IMG/VR virus record: IMGVR_UViG_3300017978_000121
Span: 1-28,163 of that record
Direction: 5' to 3' (one strand)
DNA length: 28,163 nt
Origin: a virus
Taxonomy: Duplodnaviria > Caudoviricetes
The first letter of the stretch is position 1. Each line of letters begins with the position of its first letter. This document shows positions 13,125 to 22,874 of this stretch, one piece after another. The position numbers and the translations under genes were made by a program. The notes under the pieces were generated by a model. That model saw only the letters and a list, made by a program, of their open reading frames with translations. It ran no database searches and was not told the origin of the DNA.

Positions 13125-13153
13125 GGGCTACTACAAAATTTTTTGCATTTCAA
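13125..13153 (-). promoter_or_regulatory. Leftward sigma70-like promoter, probably leaderless
   Basis: TTGAAA-N17-TAGCCC on the minus strand, 6 nt before the VRR-NUC ATG. No SD. Confidence 0.5.
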
Positions 13154-13184: not shown

Positions 13185-13214
13185 GGCCGTTCAAACAGTA
13201 GAGTGAGGTACGAT

Positions 13215-14336
13215 ATGCAACACAGTAAGATTGTCGGCGGTTCGACCGCCAAACGCGTCATCGCCTGCCCCGGCAGCGTTGCGCTGGTGGACAGCGTTCC
13301 GCCAAAGCCCAGCAGCAGCTACGCCGACGAAGGCACGCTTCTGCATGACACTATAGCATCTATATTAGAGCGTGACCTTGACCCGTACAGCATGGTCGGC
13401 ACGACTTATGAAAAGACCGTGCTGACTGAAGCACTGGTCGATGACAAGCTGATACCTGCGCTGCGTGCGCTGGACGAGATAGACCCCAAGGGGGAGATGG
13501 AATATGCGGTTGAAAGCCGGGTTGGTTTTGGTGATTTTCTGCCTGACGTTTTTGGTTCTACCGATCTTCTTGGTCGCCTTGGTGATCGAGCGGTCGTTCT
13601 GGATTGGAAGTTCGGCGATGGCGTGGCTGTCGAAGTCGAGGAAAACAGCCAGCTACTCTTCTACGCTGCGGCGGCTAAACGCACGGCGGATACGGCTTGG
13701 GCTTTTGAAGGCGCAAAAGAAGTCGAACTGATTATTGTACAGCCTCCTTACGTCAAGCGTTGGGTGACAGACCTTGCCCGCGTTGACGCGTTCGAGAAAG
13801 AACTTGCCGCTGCCGTCAAGATTGCGATGCGTCCCGATGCGCCGTTGGCGTCAGGCGACCATTGCAAGTGGTGCGCGGCCAAGCCCATCTGCCCTGTGAT
13901 GACAGGCGCTGTAGACCGCGCACTGAAAGCCAAGATTGACGCGCTGCCGATTGACCAGATTGCACACTATCTGGAACAAGCGCCGCTGATTGAAGCGTTC
14001 CTCAAAGACGTGCAGCAGATGGCGCATGGGCTTCTGGAAGAGGGTCGTAAAGTCCCCGGCTTCAAGCTGGTCAACAAACGCGCCACAAGACAGTGGATAA
14101 ATGAGGATAAGGCTGTAGCCTTCCTGACCAGCGTTGGTGTAGAGGCATGGGGCGAACCCAAGCCGCTATCGCCAGCCCAAGCGGAAAAGGCTTTGAAGAA
14201 AGCCAAAATAGAATTGCCAGCGGACTTAGTCGTCGCTGTCTCCACAGGCTCTACCCTTGCGCCGGAAAATGATCCCCGGCCAGCGGTTTTGCAAATCGGA
14301 CAGACGCTTACCAAAGCTATGTCTAAAATCCAGTAA
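13215..14336 (+). CDS. DUF2800/Cas4-like PD-(D/E)XK exonuclease
   Basis: Start at ATG 13215 after GAGTGAGG. HS..GGSTAKRVIACPGS, EGTLLH, FGSTD, VLDWKFG, QLLFYA and HCKWCAAKPICP. Confidence 0.9.
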   Translation: MQHSKIVGGSTAKRVIACPGSVALVDSVPPKPSSSYADEGTLLHDTIASILERDLDPYSMVGTTYEKTVLTEALVDDKLIPALRALDEIDPKGEMEYAVESRVGFGDFLPDVFGSTDLLGRLGDRAVVLDWKFGDGVAVEVEENSQLLFYAAAAKRTADTAWAFEGAKEVELIIVQPPYVKRWVTDLARVDAFEKELAAAVKIAMRPDAPLASGDHCKWCAAKPICPVMTGAVDRALKAKIDALPIDQIAHYLEQAPLIEAFLKDVQQMAHGLLEEGRKVPGFKLVNKRATRQWINEDKAVAFLTSVGVEAWGEPKPLSPAQAEKALKKAKIELPADLVVAVSTGSTLAPENDPRPAVLQIGQTLTKAMSKIQ

Positions 14337-14354
14337 AAGAAAAGGTACAATACA

Positions 14355-15017
14355 ATGTCGAATATCACAACTTTTGGTGGCGCTAACTTGCCGTCCGTTC
14401 AGTCTCTCTCTGGCGCGCTGCGCTCCATCCAGTCCGAAGTCGGGCCGGGCGGCACAGTCATCCTGAAGATGGACAAGACAGGCCATTGGGTTTTCGGTGC
14501 TGACCAGACCGAAGTAGAAGACGGCAGCCTGTGGGCAGCCAATCCGTTCTCGTTCGTTCACGGCTATATTGCGTGGGGTAACGGCGAAGTGCTGGCTGAG
14601 AAGCTGGTTCCGGTGTCAGAGCCGCTGCCAGAGTTAGAGCCAGCGCCATCAGGCGCAACGCGCGGATGGGAAATGCAGGTCGGCATGATGCTGGTTTGCA
14701 CGAACGGAGAAGACAAGGATATGCAGGCGCGCTTCACGGCTACATCAGTCGGCGGCAAGCGCGCAGTGCAGGCGTTAGCTGTTGCTATCGCCGATCAGGT
14801 CGAGAAAGACCAGACTAAGCCTGTGCCAATGATCGAACTGAAGTCTGAGCATTACCAGCACAAGACCTATGGTCGTATCTATACGCCTATCTTTGATATT
14901 GTCGATTGGGTGTCGATGGACACCGCTTCGGCTGAAGAAGCAGATGATGCGGAGTTGGAAGTCGCCGCTGAAGCTGAAGCCGCTGATGGTGCGCGTCGTC
15001 GTCGTCGCGTAGTATAA
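14355..15017 (+). CDS. Putative single-stranded DNA-binding protein
   Basis: Lies between exonuclease and PolA. Aromatic beta-rich core, YQHKTYGRIYTP and an acidic tail ending RRRRRVV. Confidence 0.65.
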   Translation: MSNITTFGGANLPSVQSLSGALRSIQSEVGPGGTVILKMDKTGHWVFGADQTEVEDGSLWAANPFSFVHGYIAWGNGEVLAEKLVPVSEPLPELEPAPSGATRGWEMQVGMMLVCTNGEDKDMQARFTATSVGGKRAVQALAVAIADQVEKDQTKPVPMIELKSEHYQHKTYGRIYTPIFDIVDWVSMDTASAEEADDAELEVAAEAEAADGARRRRRVV

Positions 15018-15029
15018 CAGGGCGCGAAA

Positions 15030-15054
15030 GCCGGGGCGTGTTGGGCGTCCCGGC
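15030..15054 (+). other. Intergenic RNA hairpin without U-tract
   Basis: GCCGGGGCG-TGTTGGG-CGTCCCGGC, 9 bp including one G-U. Confidence 0.5.
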
Positions 15055-15079
15055 AAGTAGCGGAAGAGTGAGAACTATC

Positions 15080-15505
15080 ATGGAAATTTGGAAAGACATA
15101 CCCGGCTATGAACGGTGCTACCAAGTTAGCAACGAAGGCCGCGTCAGATCGTTAGACCGCGCCATTACGCAGATGTCGCGCTGGGGCGCATTATACACGA
15201 AATTTGTCGGCGGCGTTGACCTTCGCCCCGGGCGTATGCCTGCGGGCCATTTGTCCGTATCTTTGGGGCGAAATAACTCCCATTGTGTGCATAAGCTGGT
15301 CTTATTGGCGTTTGTCGGCCCCGCGCCGGAAGGGCATGAATGTCTACATCAAAACGGCGATCCGTCAGATAATAGGCTTGAGAACCTTCGCTGGGGTACG
15401 CGCGGCGACAACATCCGCGACGCAATTCGTCACGGCACTTGGTTGACGCCAGCGCGTTTGGCCGCGCTTGATAAAGGCCGGGCAACGCGATGGGGGCATA
15501 AATGA
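15080..15505 (+). CDS. Free-standing NUMOD4-HNH homing endonuclease
   Basis: EIWKDIPGYE..YQVSNEGRVRS (NUMOD4) and VHKLVLLAF...CLHQNGDPSDNRLENLRWGT...N (HNH). RBS before ATG 15080. Confidence 0.92.
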   Translation: MEIWKDIPGYERCYQVSNEGRVRSLDRAITQMSRWGALYTKFVGGVDLRPGRMPAGHLSVSLGRNNSHCVHKLVLLAFVGPAPEGHECLHQNGDPSDNRLENLRWGTRGDNIRDAIRHGTWLTPARLAALDKGRATRWGHK

Positions 15506-17457
15506 CTATTTTATATTGTGATTTCGAAACACGGAGCCGGTGCGACCTTCGCAGCCGCGGCGTGTATAACTACGCGCAGGACGCCAGCACCGACGTGCTG
15601 TGTATGTCCTACGCATTTGATGACGAAGACGTGCGGACGTGGCTACCCAGTGAACCTTTCCCGCAAGCCGTGCGTGACCACAAGGGGCTGGTGTACGCGC
15701 ACAACGCAGCGTTCGAGCGCCTGATATTCTGGTATGTCCTTCAGGTCGATTTTAAGCTGGAGCAGTTCTACTGCACCGCAGCGCAGGCCCGCGCCAACTG
15801 CGCGCCGGGTAGCCTTGAGGATGTGGGCCGCTTCGCTGGCGCCACCATGAAGAAAGACCATCGCGGCGGACAACTGATCCGCGCGCTGTCCATCCCGCAG
15901 TCCGACGGCACATTCCGCGAGGACGCCGCGCTAATGCAAGAGATGGTTGACTATTGCGAACAGGATGTCCGTGCCATGCGTGCTATCGCGCAGGCGCAGC
16001 GTCCGCTGTCGGCTGATGAGTTGGCTGACTATCACACCAACGAGCGCATCAACGACCGCGGCGTCCTGCTTGACAGGCCGCTGGCGCTGGCGGCTGTGCG
16101 CTACGCTGAAACTGAACTAGCAGAGATACAGTCCATCGTCGCAGAGGTGACGCAGGGCGAGATAACATCCGTCCGCAGCCCCAAGATGAAGAAGTGGGTG
16201 CTGGACCGCGTAGGGCCGCAGGCCGTAGCCGTGGCGACCGTGATGAAGGACGGCGTCGAGAAGCTGTCCATTGACAAGAACGTGCGCGCCAACTTACTCG
16301 TGCTGGCAGAGGAGAACCCAGATGAAGTGCCATCGGAAGTCGCGGAAGTCATCCAGTGCGCGGACGATCTGTGGGCATCGTCCGTTGCAAAGTTCCAACG
16401 TGCGGCGGCGCTTGCTGATGAGGAAGATTTTCGCGTTAGAGGAGCGTTCGTATTTGCTGGAGGCAGTGCTACTGGACGCGCTTCATCGTTTGGGCTTCAG
16501 GTCCACAATTTCCCCCGCAAGTGCGCCGCCGACCCTGCATTAGTGCGGCAGGCTATGGTGCGCGGCCACCAGATTGTTCCTGAGTATGGCCGCCGCGTGA
16601 CGGACGTGCTGAAGGGTATGCTACGCCCTGCGCTGATGGCCGACACAGGCAAGCGGCTGGTCGTTGCCGATTGGGCCGCCATCGAAGCGCGCGTCACGCC
16701 GTGGGCGTCCAACAGCATCTTTGGCGCGAACAAGCTGGACATCTTTGCCAAGGGTGAGGACGTCTACAAGCACAACGCTATGGCGACCTTCCATGTCGGC
16801 TATGACGAAGTCGATAAAGACCAGCGCCAAATCGGTAAGGTTCAAGAGTTGGCGTGTGGCTTTGCAGGCGGCGTCGGCGCGTTCGCCAGCATGGGCCGCA
16901 TCTACGGCCTGATGATGTCGGAGAGCGACGCGAAGCGCATGGTGGACGCATGGCGCAGGGCTAACAAGTGGGCCGTGCCTTACTGGTCTGGCCTTGAGGA
17001 AACCTATATGCGCGCCATGCGGAACAAGGGCCGCGAGTTTACCATCGGGCGCGTCACATATTTATTTGACGGGCTGCATCTTTGGTATGCTCTTCCGTCT
17101 GGCCGTGTGCTATGTTATCCTTTCGCCCGTTTCGACGAGGAAGGCAATCTGACCTATGCCAAGGCTTCATGGAAGCCAGCCGCAGACGCTAAGGAATGGC
17201 CTAGAGCGCGGCTGTGGCGCGGTCTGGCGTGTGAGAATATCACGCAGGCTGTCGCTAACGACCTGCTGCGCTACGCCTTGCGTCGGTTGGATGACGTGAT
17301 TTTACACTGCCACGATGAAATCGTCTTGGAAGTGCCAGAAGAAGATGCAGAGGCCGCCGCAAAGCGGCTGGAGCAGATTATGTGTGAGCCGCCACCTTGG
17401 GCGTCGGGTTTACCCCTGAACGCAGAAGTGGCAATTATGAGTAGGTATGGCAAGTAG
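15502..17457 (+). CDS. Family A DNA polymerase (APSE/SPO2-like) with 3'-5' exonuclease
   Basis: DFET, AHNAAFE, YCEQD, TGR...QVHNFP. Motif A DWAAIEAR, motif B RQIGKVQELACGF, motif C HDEIV. Confidence 0.95.
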   Translation: MTILYCDFETRSRCDLRSRGVYNYAQDASTDVLCMSYAFDDEDVRTWLPSEPFPQAVRDHKGLVYAHNAAFERLIFWYVLQVDFKLEQFYCTAAQARANCAPGSLEDVGRFAGATMKKDHRGGQLIRALSIPQSDGTFREDAALMQEMVDYCEQDVRAMRAIAQAQRPLSADELADYHTNERINDRGVLLDRPLALAAVRYAETELAEIQSIVAEVTQGEITSVRSPKMKKWVLDRVGPQAVAVATVMKDGVEKLSIDKNVRANLLVLAEENPDEVPSEVAEVIQCADDLWASSVAKFQRAAALADEEDFRVRGAFVFAGGSATGRASSFGLQVHNFPRKCAADPALVRQAMVRGHQIVPEYGRRVTDVLKGMLRPALMADTGKRLVVADWAAIEARVTPWASNSIFGANKLDIFAKGEDVYKHNAMATFHVGYDEVDKDQRQIGKVQELACGFAGGVGAFASMGRIYGLMMSESDAKRMVDAWRRANKWAVPYWSGLEETYMRAMRNKGREFTIGRVTYLFDGLHLWYALPSGRVLCYPFARFDEEGNLTYAKASWKPAADAKEWPRARLWRGLACENITQAVANDLLRYALRRLDDVILHCHDEIVLEVPEEDAEAAAKRLEQIMCEPPPWASGLPLNAEVAIMSRYGK

Positions 17458-17468
17458 AGGAGCAAGCG

Positions 17469-19814
17469 ATGAGTGAGGATCGCACGAAGTTCATAGAGTA
17501 TATAACGGGATTGGCGACGGACAATGTGGGCGAGACAGCCCTTGTTGTGCGTCAGAAGCCGCAGCACGATAGCGACGGCAACATGATATTCCACGCAGAC
17601 GGCGCACCGAAGGCGACCTTCCCTGCGTTCCTGCCAGAAAAGACCCGCATGAAAGAAGGCGAGGCATGGTATGTCAACACAGGCTCGTTCATCGTTGACC
17701 GCTTTGTAGACGGCAAGCCAGCCGCCAAGTCGAGCAACGTCGAGTATGTGCTGTTCATGATGCTGGACGACGTTGGCACGAAGTCGAAAGAGCCGCCGCT
17801 AGAGCCGACATGGGTATTGGAAACCAGCGAAGGTTCGTTCCAGTGGGGCTACGCGTTCAGCGAACAGCCAAAGAAGGGTGACTTCTGCGCGGCCATCAAG
17901 GCGATTGCCGATGCTGGCTACACTGATCCCGGCGCGACTAACGCCGTCCGCAACTGCCGCATCCCCGGCAGCGTCAACCTGAAGCAAGGACGCAACAACT
18001 TTCCTGCGCGGCTGGTATCGTTCGACCCTGAGCGTGAATACACGCTGGATGAGATATGCAAGGCGCTGGACGTTACGCCAGAGGAAGGCGACACAGCCGA
18101 ATATAAAGCCGTGCAGTTGCGCGACACTGGGCTTGACAACGTCTTGACATGGCTTGCCGAAAAGAACCTAGTCCTAAGCACGCCCAACAATGATGGATGG
18201 TGCGGCATCGTCTGCCCTAACCATCAGGAACACAGCGACGGCATGATAGAGGCGCGCTACAAGCCGCTCGACCGCTCGTTCTGCTGCTATCATGGGCATT
18301 GCCAAGACTTAGATAGTCGCACCTTTCTTGATTGGGTAGCCAATGAAGGCGGCCCGAAGGTAACGCCGGGCTTGCGTGACGAACTAATCGCTGAACGTCT
18401 GGCGTCGATGTATGAGAAAATCTCACCGACCGAAGCGTTCCCTGATGAAGCCGCAGCGCGTGTGCGTGAAGTCGAAAAGAAAGAAGCAGGACGGCTGGAA
18501 CAAAGCGAGTGGTTCGAGCGTTTCGCCTATATACAGTCCGATGACTGCTATTTTGACATGGTGACGCGTCAAGAGATAGCGCGTAACGTCTTCAACGCCT
18601 TGTTCCGTCACGTTGACTGCCGCTCTATCCACAAGAAAACGCAGCGCGTGCAGTCGTCCATCTATTTTGACGAGCGCCGTCAGGATCGCGGTGCGCCTGC
18701 ACTGGCTGCCGTGACGTTCGCCGCTGGCGATGATACTTTGGTGACGCGCGACGGGCTGGTCTACGGCAACCGCTGGGTGGACGGACGCCCTGACGTGTCG
18801 GACAGCGACAAGATCGCAGACCATGACGTTGAGCCGTGGCTTCAGCATTGCCGCGATCTGGTAGCGGACGATGAGGAGTTAGACCACATCTTTGACGCTA
18901 TGGCGTTTAAGATACAGCATCCTAACGTCAAGATTAACCATGCCATCCTGATTGGCGGCGATGAAGGCGTCGGTAAGGACAGTATGTTCCAGCCGTTCCT
19001 GTGGGCGCTGGGCGGTCAGCACTGGCGCAATCGGTCAGTCATTGAGGCTGGCGGCTTGGACAGCCAGTGGGGTTATGCGCTTGAGGCTGAAGTTGTCATC
19101 CTGAACGAGTTAAAGGAACCAGAGGCGCGCGAACGTCGCGCTATGGCTAACAAACTAAAGCCGCTGATTGCTGCGCCGCCTGAAACGCTGACAGTCAACC
19201 GCAAGGGTATGCATCCCTATGAGTTGGTCAACCGCCTGATGGTGATTGCATACACGAACGATCCGCTGCCTATCACGCTGCCGACACAGGACAGGCGTTG
19301 GTTCTGCGTGTGGACGCACGCGCAGCGTATGGCGCCAGCCGCAGCAGACAAGCTGTGGAACTGGTATAAGAACGGCGGATACGAGAAGTGCGCCGCATGG
19401 CTGTGGCAGCGTGACGTATCGCGGTTCAACCCTGCCGCTGCGCCGCCTGTCACCGAATGGAAGCTGAACATGGTCGAGCATGGCATGAGCGTAGCGGAAA
19501 GCTATCTTGTGGATATGATGCGCGAGAAGGCGGGCGTGTTTGCCAATGGCGTCATCGGTGGGCCTTTCCACCGCGTCTGTGACGCGCTGGCGGTCAACGT
19601 GCCGGCTGGCGTGAAGATACCACAGGCGGCGCTGCTACACGCGCTCAAAGAGGCTGGCTGGATTGATATGGGCCGGATTGGTTCAACTGACTACCCGACT
19701 AAGAAACACATCTTTGTCTCGCCTGACGTGAAGAAACGGAACAAGTCCGACTTGCGCCGCTTGGCGGAAGACTTGCCCAAGTCGAGCATCATGCCAAACA
19801 TAGGCAAGAATTGA
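17469..19814 (+). CDS. Primase-helicase fusion (RepB-like primase, Zn finger, SF3/DUF5906-like helicase)
   Basis: LDDVG, ETSEGSFQWGY, RIPGSVN; CPNHQEH...CYHGHC; Walker A GDEGVGKD; VILNE; YTN...DRRW. Confidence 0.88.
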   Translation: MSEDRTKFIEYITGLATDNVGETALVVRQKPQHDSDGNMIFHADGAPKATFPAFLPEKTRMKEGEAWYVNTGSFIVDRFVDGKPAAKSSNVEYVLFMMLDDVGTKSKEPPLEPTWVLETSEGSFQWGYAFSEQPKKGDFCAAIKAIADAGYTDPGATNAVRNCRIPGSVNLKQGRNNFPARLVSFDPEREYTLDEICKALDVTPEEGDTAEYKAVQLRDTGLDNVLTWLAEKNLVLSTPNNDGWCGIVCPNHQEHSDGMIEARYKPLDRSFCCYHGHCQDLDSRTFLDWVANEGGPKVTPGLRDELIAERLASMYEKISPTEAFPDEAAARVREVEKKEAGRLEQSEWFERFAYIQSDDCYFDMVTRQEIARNVFNALFRHVDCRSIHKKTQRVQSSIYFDERRQDRGAPALAAVTFAAGDDTLVTRDGLVYGNRWVDGRPDVSDSDKIADHDVEPWLQHCRDLVADDEELDHIFDAMAFKIQHPNVKINHAILIGGDEGVGKDSMFQPFLWALGGQHWRNRSVIEAGGLDSQWGYALEAEVVILNELKEPEARERRAMANKLKPLIAAPPETLTVNRKGMHPYELVNRLMVIAYTNDPLPITLPTQDRRWFCVWTHAQRMAPAAADKLWNWYKNGGYEKCAAWLWQRDVSRFNPAAAPPVTEWKLNMVEHGMSVAESYLVDMMREKAGVFANGVIGGPFHRVCDALAVNVPAGVKIPQAALLHALKEAGWIDMGRIGSTDYPTKKHIFVSPDVKKRNKSDLRRLAEDLPKSSIMPNIGKN

Positions 19815-19840
19815 CATGGGATAACGTGCAATGATATAGG
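19811..19840 (+). promoter_or_regulatory. Sigma70-like promoter with no downstream ORF
   Basis: Perfect TTGACA overlapping the primase stop codon, N18, then TG-A-TATAGG (extended -10). Confidence 0.65.
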
Positions 19841-19844
19841 TTCA

Positions 19845-19911
19845 AGGTCGGTGTTGCTCCGCTGGCCTGATTAAACCCCCGGCGTCCTCACTCCGCCGGG
19901 GGTTTTTATTT
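19845..19911 (+). ncRNA. Putative two-hairpin antisense small RNA
   Basis: Hairpin 1 AGGTCGGTG-TTGCTC-CGCTGGCCT. Hairpin 2 AAACCCCCGGCG-TCCTCACTC-CGCCGGGGGTTT. Both loops are complementary to phage RBS regions. Confidence 0.65.
19873..19911. terminator. Bidirectional intrinsic terminator between convergent operons
   Basis: 12-bp stem with TTTTTATTT on + and TTTAAT on -. Confidence 0.85.
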
Positions 19912-20085: not shown

Positions 20086-20246
20086 TTGCTTTGCTCCTGT
20101 AGTGCTGCGATGGCGGCGTCTGCCAATTTAAAGCAGCCATCCCTCTCTCTGGGTGAAACATACATTTGGTTGTCAATGTCCTCATTATACTGCGCATGGC
20201 ATATCTTGTTAGCTATCGCCTCACGCTCATTCTCAACGTCCTGCAT
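20076..20246 (-). CDS. Hypothetical protein
   Basis: GGAGG RBS before ATG 20246. Ends LADAAIAALQEQ. Confidence 0.6.
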   Translation of the reverse strand: MQDVENEREAIANKICHAQYNEDIDNQMYVSPRERDGCFKLADAAIAALQEQSKCQ

Positions 20247-22583: not shown

Positions 22584-22835
22584 TTACGCGCATTCCACGT
22601 TTACGAAATAGTAACCGCCATCGCCCTTGGCGTTACCGCCTTGGGCGTAGGTGCCAGTCCAACCCATTTTAGCGATTAGAGCGTCCGCAGCGGCCTTGTG
22701 GGCGTCCTGTGCGTCCAGCGCATAGGGATAGCCGATGGTGACGCTGCCAGCCCATGCGGTCGCTTTGATACGTCCGCCCTTGGTGTTGGTTGGGCCAAGG
22801 TAACGTGTTTCGATTGCTTGTGTAATGAATGTCAT
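22584..22835 (-). CDS. Conserved-type phage early hypothetical protein
   Basis: QAIETRYLGPTNTKGGRIKA motif. AGGAG RBS. Confidence 0.75.
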   Translation of the reverse strand: MTFITQAIETRYLGPTNTKGGRIKATAWAGSVTIGYPYALDAQDAHKAAADALIAKMGWTGTYAQGGNAKGDGGYYFVNVECA

Positions 22836-22874
22836 AGTTTCTCACTCCTATAATTGGCACTAGCGCCATCCTCG

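Follow-up and report, generated by a model that had tools for sequence, protein, structure and literature searches.

Gene order and a predicted RNA behind the primase gene

The sequence analysed here, called the window below, comprises 28,163 nucleotides (IMG/VR virus record IMGVR_UViG_3300017978_000121) and represents a 28-kb portion of a tailed-phage genome, the relatives of which are uncultured phages. We describe a predicted two-hairpin RNA of about 62 nucleotides (approximately 19846-19907, plus strand), located directly 3′ of the stop codon of a primase-helicase gene, together with short sites at phage gene starts that are complementary to its two loops. The first part of the window contains virion genes, lysis genes and a leftward helicase operon. 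These are followed by a rightward run (13215-19814) of exonuclease gene, a gene at 14355, HNH gene, polymerase gene and primase gene, and after it by a leftward block of small genes, terminase and portal. The polymerase stop codon (17455-17457) lies just ahead of the primase ATG (17469-17471). A first-pass annotation had placed a small RNA immediately behind the primase gene, which agrees with the hairpin positions (19846-19907, with the primase stop codon ending at 19814). The RepB primase domain of the encoded protein matches PF16793 with 25.3 bits (cut-off 24.3). The central features are:

17469-19814, plus strand: primase-helicase gene, 781 amino acids, with a RepB-type primase domain and a DUF5906/VapE-like domain
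17459-17465, plus strand: loop-1 site GGAGCAA, overlapping the primase Shine-Dalgarno sequence; optional across the family
17466-17483, plus strand: predicted target hairpin, GCGAU (17466-17470), loop GAGUGAGG (17471-17478), AUCGC (17479-17483)
19811-19840, plus strand: predicted small-RNA promoter, composed of TTGACA (sharing bases with the primase stop codon), 18 nucleotides, extended −10 element TGn-TATAGG
19846-19868, plus strand: hairpin 1 of the small RNA, loop (G)UUGCUCC; 7 of 8 pairs change on both sides
19873-19907, plus strand: hairpin 2 of the small RNA, terminator-like with a U tract, loop UCCUCACUC at 19885-19893

At the DNA level loop 1 reads TTGCTCC (19854-19860) and loop 2 reads TCCTCACTC (19885-19893). 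The two-hairpin element folds with a z of −4.75. In an alignment of 28 hand-picked elements from related loci (given as L numbers), 14 of 20 stem pairs change on both sides and 92% of the cells pair, compared with 32-59% in slid controls; kinship among the sequences inflates such counts. Cells with G-U outnumber those with A-C by 51:4, which favours the plus strand as the RNA strand; the minus strand folds too (−30.7 kcal/mol). The YUNR-type motif CUCA is kept in every loop-2 variant except that of L202, a YUNR match alone being common by chance. Rfam contains no family for this RNA, and the sole match in the window is a weak, terminator-like one to NsiR1 (28 bits, gathering score 39). Forms with three hairpins, which carry an extra middle hairpin (loop GCTTT or GCTCT), are present in L029, L033, L050, L065 and L071.

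The layout of the predicted promoter is common to all 61 distinct elements parsed: a TTG-type hexamer, 15 nucleotides, a TGn-type element and a −10 element, at constant spacing. In deeper lineages the promoter-like element is placed within the last primase codons. The pattern used did not capture L117-L119, L120 and lineage B, in which loop 1 is replaced; the lineage B sequence does show TTGATA at equal spacing. We infer that a host sigma-70 promoter probably drives separate transcription of an RNA of roughly 62 nucleotides. A simple consensus promoter scan missed this promoter because its −10 element lacks the last T. This T is missing in 47 of the 61 distinct predicted promoters, a trait reported for Alphaproteobacteria (PMC8407463), and this gives a hint, but only a hint, of an alphaproteobacterial host. 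In prokaryote genomes, matches were found only on two short metagenome-bin contigs (one titled Roseomonas, 1.4 kb), too weak a basis for naming a host. A blastn search of cultured phages detected no copy of the RNA. Only one full-length relative of the primase there exceeds 50%, MW202483 (53%), and it has neither the loop nor the site. Relatives of the primase gene and the hairpins are covered by one metatranscriptome, and a comparison run of unrecorded type was similar; both consist of assembled contigs, which carry no information on ends, strand or level.

The promoter spacer is often palindromic and differs between phages (CAACCA-TT-TGGTTG, CTGATATCAG); this applies to the window (19811-19834) and, at the same place, to L002, L012 and L041. 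An endonuclease promoter near 13140 is likewise palindromic. Such spacers could be operators that time the RNA.

The primase start site

Positions 17455-17484 read TAGAGGAGCAAGCGATGAGTGAGGATCGCA. The first-pass annotation had described seeds for both loops around the start codon, and the bases confirm this description: GGAGCAA, over the Shine-Dalgarno sequence, and the 9-nt site GAGTGAGGA at 17471-17479 are exact complements of TTGCTCC and TCCTCACTC, respectively. GAGTGAGGA occurs twice in the window, at the primase site and as the reverse complement of the loop itself. Expected are 0.11 occurrences and none of 100 shuffled sequences reached two, a chance count that has to be read with the pattern having been picked after the fact. 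The proposed extension with one bulge also holds, since GAGTGAGGA(t)CGC forms 12 pairs with GCGTCCTCACTC and gains a calculated −19.1 kcal/mol, versus −14.4 kcal/mol for the 9-mer.

Beyond the first reading, the target site is predicted to form a hairpin of its own, which accounts for 0.895 of the ensemble and points to a loop-loop design. Its stem is weak (−5.3 kcal/mol) and hides the AU of the start codon, and its loop displays the loop-2 seed. The ninth base, A17479, is part of the predicted stem; the loop-loop contact would therefore comprise 8 nucleotides. Variants of the stem in relatives still pair, with a G-U pair in L032 and L116, a shifted register together with a GUG start in L108, and AUGAU/AUCGU in L261. 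The loop-2 site is present in 71 of 72 distinct primase leaders and the loop-1 site in 41 of them, so that the claim of two seeds stands for loop 2 but only in part for loop 1, which is sometimes uncoupled. L200 carries, near 2120-2140, a gene inserted between polymerase and primase that starts with a copy of the primase leader (GGAGCAAGCG ATG AGT GAG G) containing both seeds.

In a first scan ATG AGT GAG GAT CGC was found in 67 of the 68 relatives with a 5′ end. We then compared 58 representatives below 95% identity, taken from 101 full-length primase genes (two more were skipped due to internal stops). Codons 2-5 (AGT GAG GAT CGC) are identical in 55 of them, with AGT and GAG invariant; the free synonymous variation that the first-pass annotation had named as speaking against its proposal was not seen. 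These are the most conserved 12 nucleotides tested: the best of the other four-codon runs in the gene (631 tested) is shared by 40 of 58, and among 428 conserved-residue sites elsewhere in the gene, no more than 20 keep one codon at 97%. The predicted hairpin also explains why codon 5 and the three nucleotides ahead of the ATG are frozen, as they form part of its stem. In the same set of representatives, codons 2-5 are identical in only 12 of 38, 15 of 43, 16 of 49 and 12 of 39 for four other genes, and the peptide TEKE of the endonuclease, although retained in 36 of 39, is spelled in eight ways. The constraint in the primase gene is thus not a general effect of 5′ ends. The encoded MSEDR tail is wholly absent from sister lineages. 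Together with the joint changes described next, the codon comparison supports a constraint on the coding-sequence site that acts at the nucleotide level and is tied to loop 2.

Loop 2 and its sites have also changed together. In L261 and L262 loop 2 is altered from CUCACU to CUCAAU, the primase gene begins with ATG ATT GAG GAT CGT, and the loop of the polymerase leader has changed from AGUGAG to AUUGAG. Pairing of the L261 loop is calculated at −9.5 kcal/mol with its own site and at −5.6 kcal/mol with the window site; for the window loop the values are −15.8 kcal/mol with its own site and −9.6 kcal/mol with the L261 site. A search for further phages of the L261 type found none. Matched changes at the edges of loop 2 and site are seen in L032 and L120. 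In L296 and L297 the promoter and both hairpins stay, loop 2 is without CUCAC, the primase gene begins with ATG AAC GAC GAG AGC, and no AGTGAG was found at any start in the sequence examined. Their loop 1 (UUUCCCCU) newly matches the primase Shine-Dalgarno sequence (AGGGGAAA) over 8 nucleotides.

Of 301 loci, 238 contain both ends (duplicates included); 179 of these have loop and site, 56 have neither, two carry the changed pair, one is a G-U variant and none is discordant. In a tree of 67 primases (68 were picked; L202 was excluded for a stop codon within the gene) the phages with the RNA fall into a single clade of 50 rows with a Shimodaira-Hasegawa-like approximate likelihood ratio test (SH-aLRT) value of 99, and L261 and L296 are nested within it. 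A search of 57 sister-lineage loci with the RNA model gave no clear match (maximum 21.7 bits); seven of eight positive controls scored 34-60 bits, and the eighth, L153 with its long insert, 20.1 bits.

Seeds at other gene starts

Out of 200 loci, 7 were truncated and excluded; gene starts were called heuristically on the remaining 138 RNA-bearing and 55 sister loci. In an unbiased ranking of k-mers in the start zone, the complements of both loops rank first. The top enriched words are AGTGAG, found in 62 of 468 families versus 4 of 298 in sisters, and GAGCAA, and among 7-mers GGAGCAA, GAGTGAG and GGAGTGA; kinship among the loci inflates the P values of this ranking. Start counts by lineage were made without 8 loci that have other loops. 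GGAG is about equally frequent at starts of sisters (221 of 740) and of lineage A (487 of 1673), but only 4 of 740 sister starts have AGTGAG; Shine-Dalgarno bias hardly explains the coding site, in line with the first-pass annotation. Of the lineage B starts, 6 of 336 carry GGAGCA and 29 of 336 still carry AGTGAG; the GGAGCA count is 154 of 1673 for lineage A and 22 of 740 for sisters.

The seeds cluster at −18 to +3 of start codons on the coding strand, those overlapping the Shine-Dalgarno sequence at −18 to −9. The replication run has 154 loop-2 and 43 loop-1 sites at 324 starts. In the leftward small-gene block, which from its layout might represent early genes, 106 loop-2 and 130 loop-1 sites are present at 1024 starts. 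Sites are rare elsewhere, with two loop-2 and five loop-1 sites at 277 virion and lysis starts, one and six at 271 starts of the helicase operon and none of either at 346 terminase-portal starts. At the level of sequence, this supports the regulon suggested earlier, the seeds marking many starts. In the window the following sites are found in addition to those at the primase start:

13201-13208, plus strand: loop-2 site GAGTGAGG ahead of the exonuclease (DUF2800) gene, which starts at 13215; present in 30 of 55 distinct leaders
15066-15073, plus strand: loop-2 site GAGTGAGA in the DNA polymerase leader, here ahead of the HNH gene (ATG 15080)
22832-22853, minus strand: predicted hairpin with a loop-2 site, spanning the start (22835) of one of the small leftward genes
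20091-20097, minus strand: loop-1 site GGAGCAA before a D5-like regulator open reading frame (ATG 20085); in 2 of the 11 leaders listed

At the small leftward gene starting at 22835, relatives have either GGAGTGAG or GGAGCAA. Hairpins in the polymerase leaders carry exchanged stems (GGAUG/CAUCC, GGUUG/CAACC, UGAAG/CUUCA, AGAAG/CUUCU, GGUG/CACC and AGGU/ACCU) round an AGUGAG that is invariant inside them. In L048, L087 and the window the leader precedes another gene, and its hairpin is weakened or disrupted. In total, hairpin loops hold 61 of the 198 distinct GTGAG start sites, and the two controls gave 14-16 (maxima 21 and 28). When the families of primase, polymerase and exonuclease are excluded, the count is 21 of 129 versus about 8 (control maxima 18 and 16). 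Ordinary Shine-Dalgarno words are found in hairpin loops less often than in their controls. A display of loop-1 sites in hairpins was considered as well and rejected, as 8 of 152 compare with 4-5 in controls (maxima 10-12).

The polymerase leader keeps its place though HNH and other genes sit between leader and polymerase. In the window (15030-15080) it consists of a strong GC-rich hairpin, a conserved GTAGCGG and the seed hairpin; the leader may be an attenuator or a processing site. Lineage B (L087-L105 and related loci) has a second start tag, GGAAACG, in 16 of 129 families versus none of 298 in sisters, at starts 6-10 kb upstream of the primase stop codon. The exonuclease leader of this lineage resembles its loop 1 in the same sense (ACCCACCCAAAC and CACCCCAAAC), and its small-gene block is rearranged onto the plus strand.

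Proposed mode of action, alternatives and known systems

Since loop and site change together and vanish together in relatives, it is likely that the RNA pairs with the primase start and, as its probable function, represses translation of the phage DNA-replication genes. We consider it probable that a free RNA pairs loop to loop with the primase start hairpin and blocks initiation. Loop 2, with its core CUCA, would pair first with the target loop GAGUGAGG; pairing may then extend into the 3′ arm of the target and cover codons 1-5, and loop 1 might add an optional second contact on the Shine-Dalgarno sequence. Repression from within the five-codon window is established (PMC9486967). With rising genome copies the level of the RNA would increase and expression of replication and early genes would be damped, which might serve as negative feedback or as a switch from replication to packaging, and possibly also act against a superinfecting relative. 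None of five complete relatives matches PF00589, PF00239, PF13614 or PF01381 (integrase, resolvase, ParA-type ATPase and HTH_3 were sought), and we tentatively favour lytic feedback or timing over lysogeny control. Of the best PHROG families listed for 46 window proteins, none is an antirepressor.

Several observations weigh against pairing in this form. The exonuclease leader of L261 and L262 still reads AGUGAG and has not switched; these two are near-identical contigs (49 differences in 8,600 nucleotides), and covariation of the core seed thus comes from one lineage and one switch. The single origin on the tree means that presence versus absence counts as one event. Some loop-2 pairs are imperfect: L117 has the loop CCUCACC, no more than 6 Watson-Crick pairs form in L082 and L211, and the loop UCUCACUC is combined in 10 of 11 loci with a GG kept in the target, which needs a G-U pair. 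Loop 1 is changed without its primase site in L003, L058 and L224. No mirrored hairpin loop for GGAAACG was found in the lineage B sequence examined, which indicates that a start tag in these phages need not have a visible antisense counterpart. The two loops follow each other in the same 5′ to 3′ order as their two sites; therefore one RNA cannot hold both as a simple nested duplex, and double binding would need side-by-side helices or two RNAs. An RNAcofold solution was set aside because the program cannot model kissing loops; the nested gain was only 4.3 kcal/mol and came via opening of hairpin 1.

If no free small RNA were made, the 3′ terminator loop of an exonuclease-polymerase-primase mRNA might fold in cis onto its own start regions. 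The three best-conserved sites indeed lie on the same strand upstream of the terminator, apparently in one operon. This is unlikely, however, because in the lineages examined hairpin 1 is immediately preceded by a conserved promoter-like element, even where this falls within primase codons, and the sites of the leftward small-gene block are on the opposite strand and reachable only in trans. It is also conceivable, but quite unlikely, that the RNA activates by binding the same loop and opening the AUG-hiding stem as pairing extends into its 3′ arm. It is true that the stem hides the AU of the start codon and that the extension pairs with the 3′ arm; however, the bound RNA would cover the G of the AUG and codons 2-5, elsewhere the seed overlaps the Shine-Dalgarno sequence itself (−18 to −9), and the stem is weak.

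The motif could further be read by a protein, either by a repressor on GUGAG loops with the minus strand as decoy or by the RepB-type primase priming at hairpins of single-stranded DNA. RepB′ of RSF1010 primes at DNA hairpins, and a cognate RepB-type primase is present here (PF16793). The minus strand folds as well, and an altered protein specificity would also shift all sites together. We regard a protein reader as very unlikely, since promoter, U tract and G-U pairs all indicate the plus strand, and two unrelated motifs each follow their own loop. Nor would a leftward transcript end at the hairpin in lineage B, where the following gene is on the plus strand. The initiation hairpins of the RepB′ type are sites at an origin, independent of start codons, whereas the sites described here cluster at starts on the coding strand, for which DNA priming sites would have no reason. 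Chance together with Shine-Dalgarno bias and a favoured Met-Ser-Glu start is hardly credible and largely refuted: both motifs contain GGAG or GAGG and the first pattern was picked after the fact, yet sisters are as rich in GGAG at starts and almost lack AGTGAG, and codon invariance, covariation at three sites and joint loss argue against it.

Base pairing of a free RNA in trans can be compared with several known systems. R1 CopA and ColE1 RNAI are antisense RNAs that control plasmid replication. For this class, which includes those of pIP501 and pMV158 (RNAII), PMC4485353 gives loop-loop starts with YUNR motifs as the rule. The phage RNA shares with them a short hairpin RNA directed at a replication gene, the predicted loop-loop recognition, a YUNR-type CUCA in one loop and a target in a hairpin of its own. 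In contrast to them it is neither transcribed across its target nor fully complementary to it (9 nucleotides are perfect, seeds have 6-13), it marks several replication and many small genes, and its carrier is a phage. The first-pass comparison with plasmid-style antisense copy control thus applies to recognition mode and target class, but not to the arrangement, the RNA being on the same strand 2.4 kb downstream, with 6-13 nt pairing and many targets. By these features the phage RNA is not a cis-encoded copy-control antisense RNA of the plasmid type.

C4-type RNAs are structured phage RNAs that are encoded on the strand of their targets and act through short exposed segments with two-loop pairing; the P4 CI RNA is comparable. 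The predicted RNA resembles them in being phage-encoded, structured, on the same strand as its targets and apparently active through short exposed segments. It differs from the C4 antisense RNA of phages P1 and P7 (PMC8198154) in that it has no Rfam match, lies downstream of its targets with its own predicted promoter, and is directed at primase, polymerase, exonuclease and small leftward genes instead of an icd-ant antirepressor operon. Judged by sequence features, it fits trans-encoded seed-pairing small RNAs as outlined in PMC9486967: it has a predicted promoter and intrinsic terminator of its own, a conserved structure, and a short seed that has many predicted targets, covaries with target sites and addresses sites over the Shine-Dalgarno sequence, the start codon and the first codons. 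Unlike in these, the seed is the terminator loop and the targets are the phage's own genes with matched hairpins, one of them in codons 1-5. The phage small RNAs OOP, sar, aQ, PreS, VpdS and STnc6030 likewise steer replication, lysogeny or superinfection exclusion by base pairing; in the accessible part of the 2025 review (PMC12197685) they are cis-antisense to one gene or mainly host-directed, and none is a multi-gene regulator of the phage's own replication genes.

A literature search at the level of titles and beginnings of abstracts, with most subscription papers outside its coverage, found no description of this system. The observation itself is confirmed as real and turned out stronger than first described; the RNA would be a case of base-pairing antisense control. 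Phage antisense RNAs in the accessible literature mostly address one gene or the host; here, the whole replication and early set of the phage itself is apparently addressed, through target hairpins that appear to be built for the RNA and include protein codons frozen for pairing. It is possible, although we propose it only tentatively, that a widespread clade of phages uses an RNA-only master repressor, in which an RNA of about 62 nucleotides, dosed by genome copies, shuts down early genes and those for primase, polymerase and exonuclease through kissing contacts with hairpins made for this purpose, one of which lies in the first five primase codons. If so, the N-terminal MSEDR tail of the primase would exist for its RNA, and new exclusion groups would be defined by loop variants, CUCAAU for example, comparable to loop mutations that lead to incompatibility groups in plasmids. 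L261, L296 and lineage B provide natural compensatory and loss alleles, and the model is therefore testable with reporters without culturing the phage.

Sister lineages without the RNA show other elements behind the primase gene. L122, L123, L132, L136 and L260 share a different conserved terminator loop (GTGTTCCGATC or GTGTACCAATC). GGAACAC before the L132 start matches the loop of this group over 7 nucleotides, and other members match less. A loop-target pair of its own in the L122/L132 lineage is not supported, with only 3-5 nt matches to codons 1-5. L177, L180, L181 and L198 carry short direct repeats of the AAAAAACGGGAGCGTTTGCCTGC type at this place, which are possibly origin iterons.

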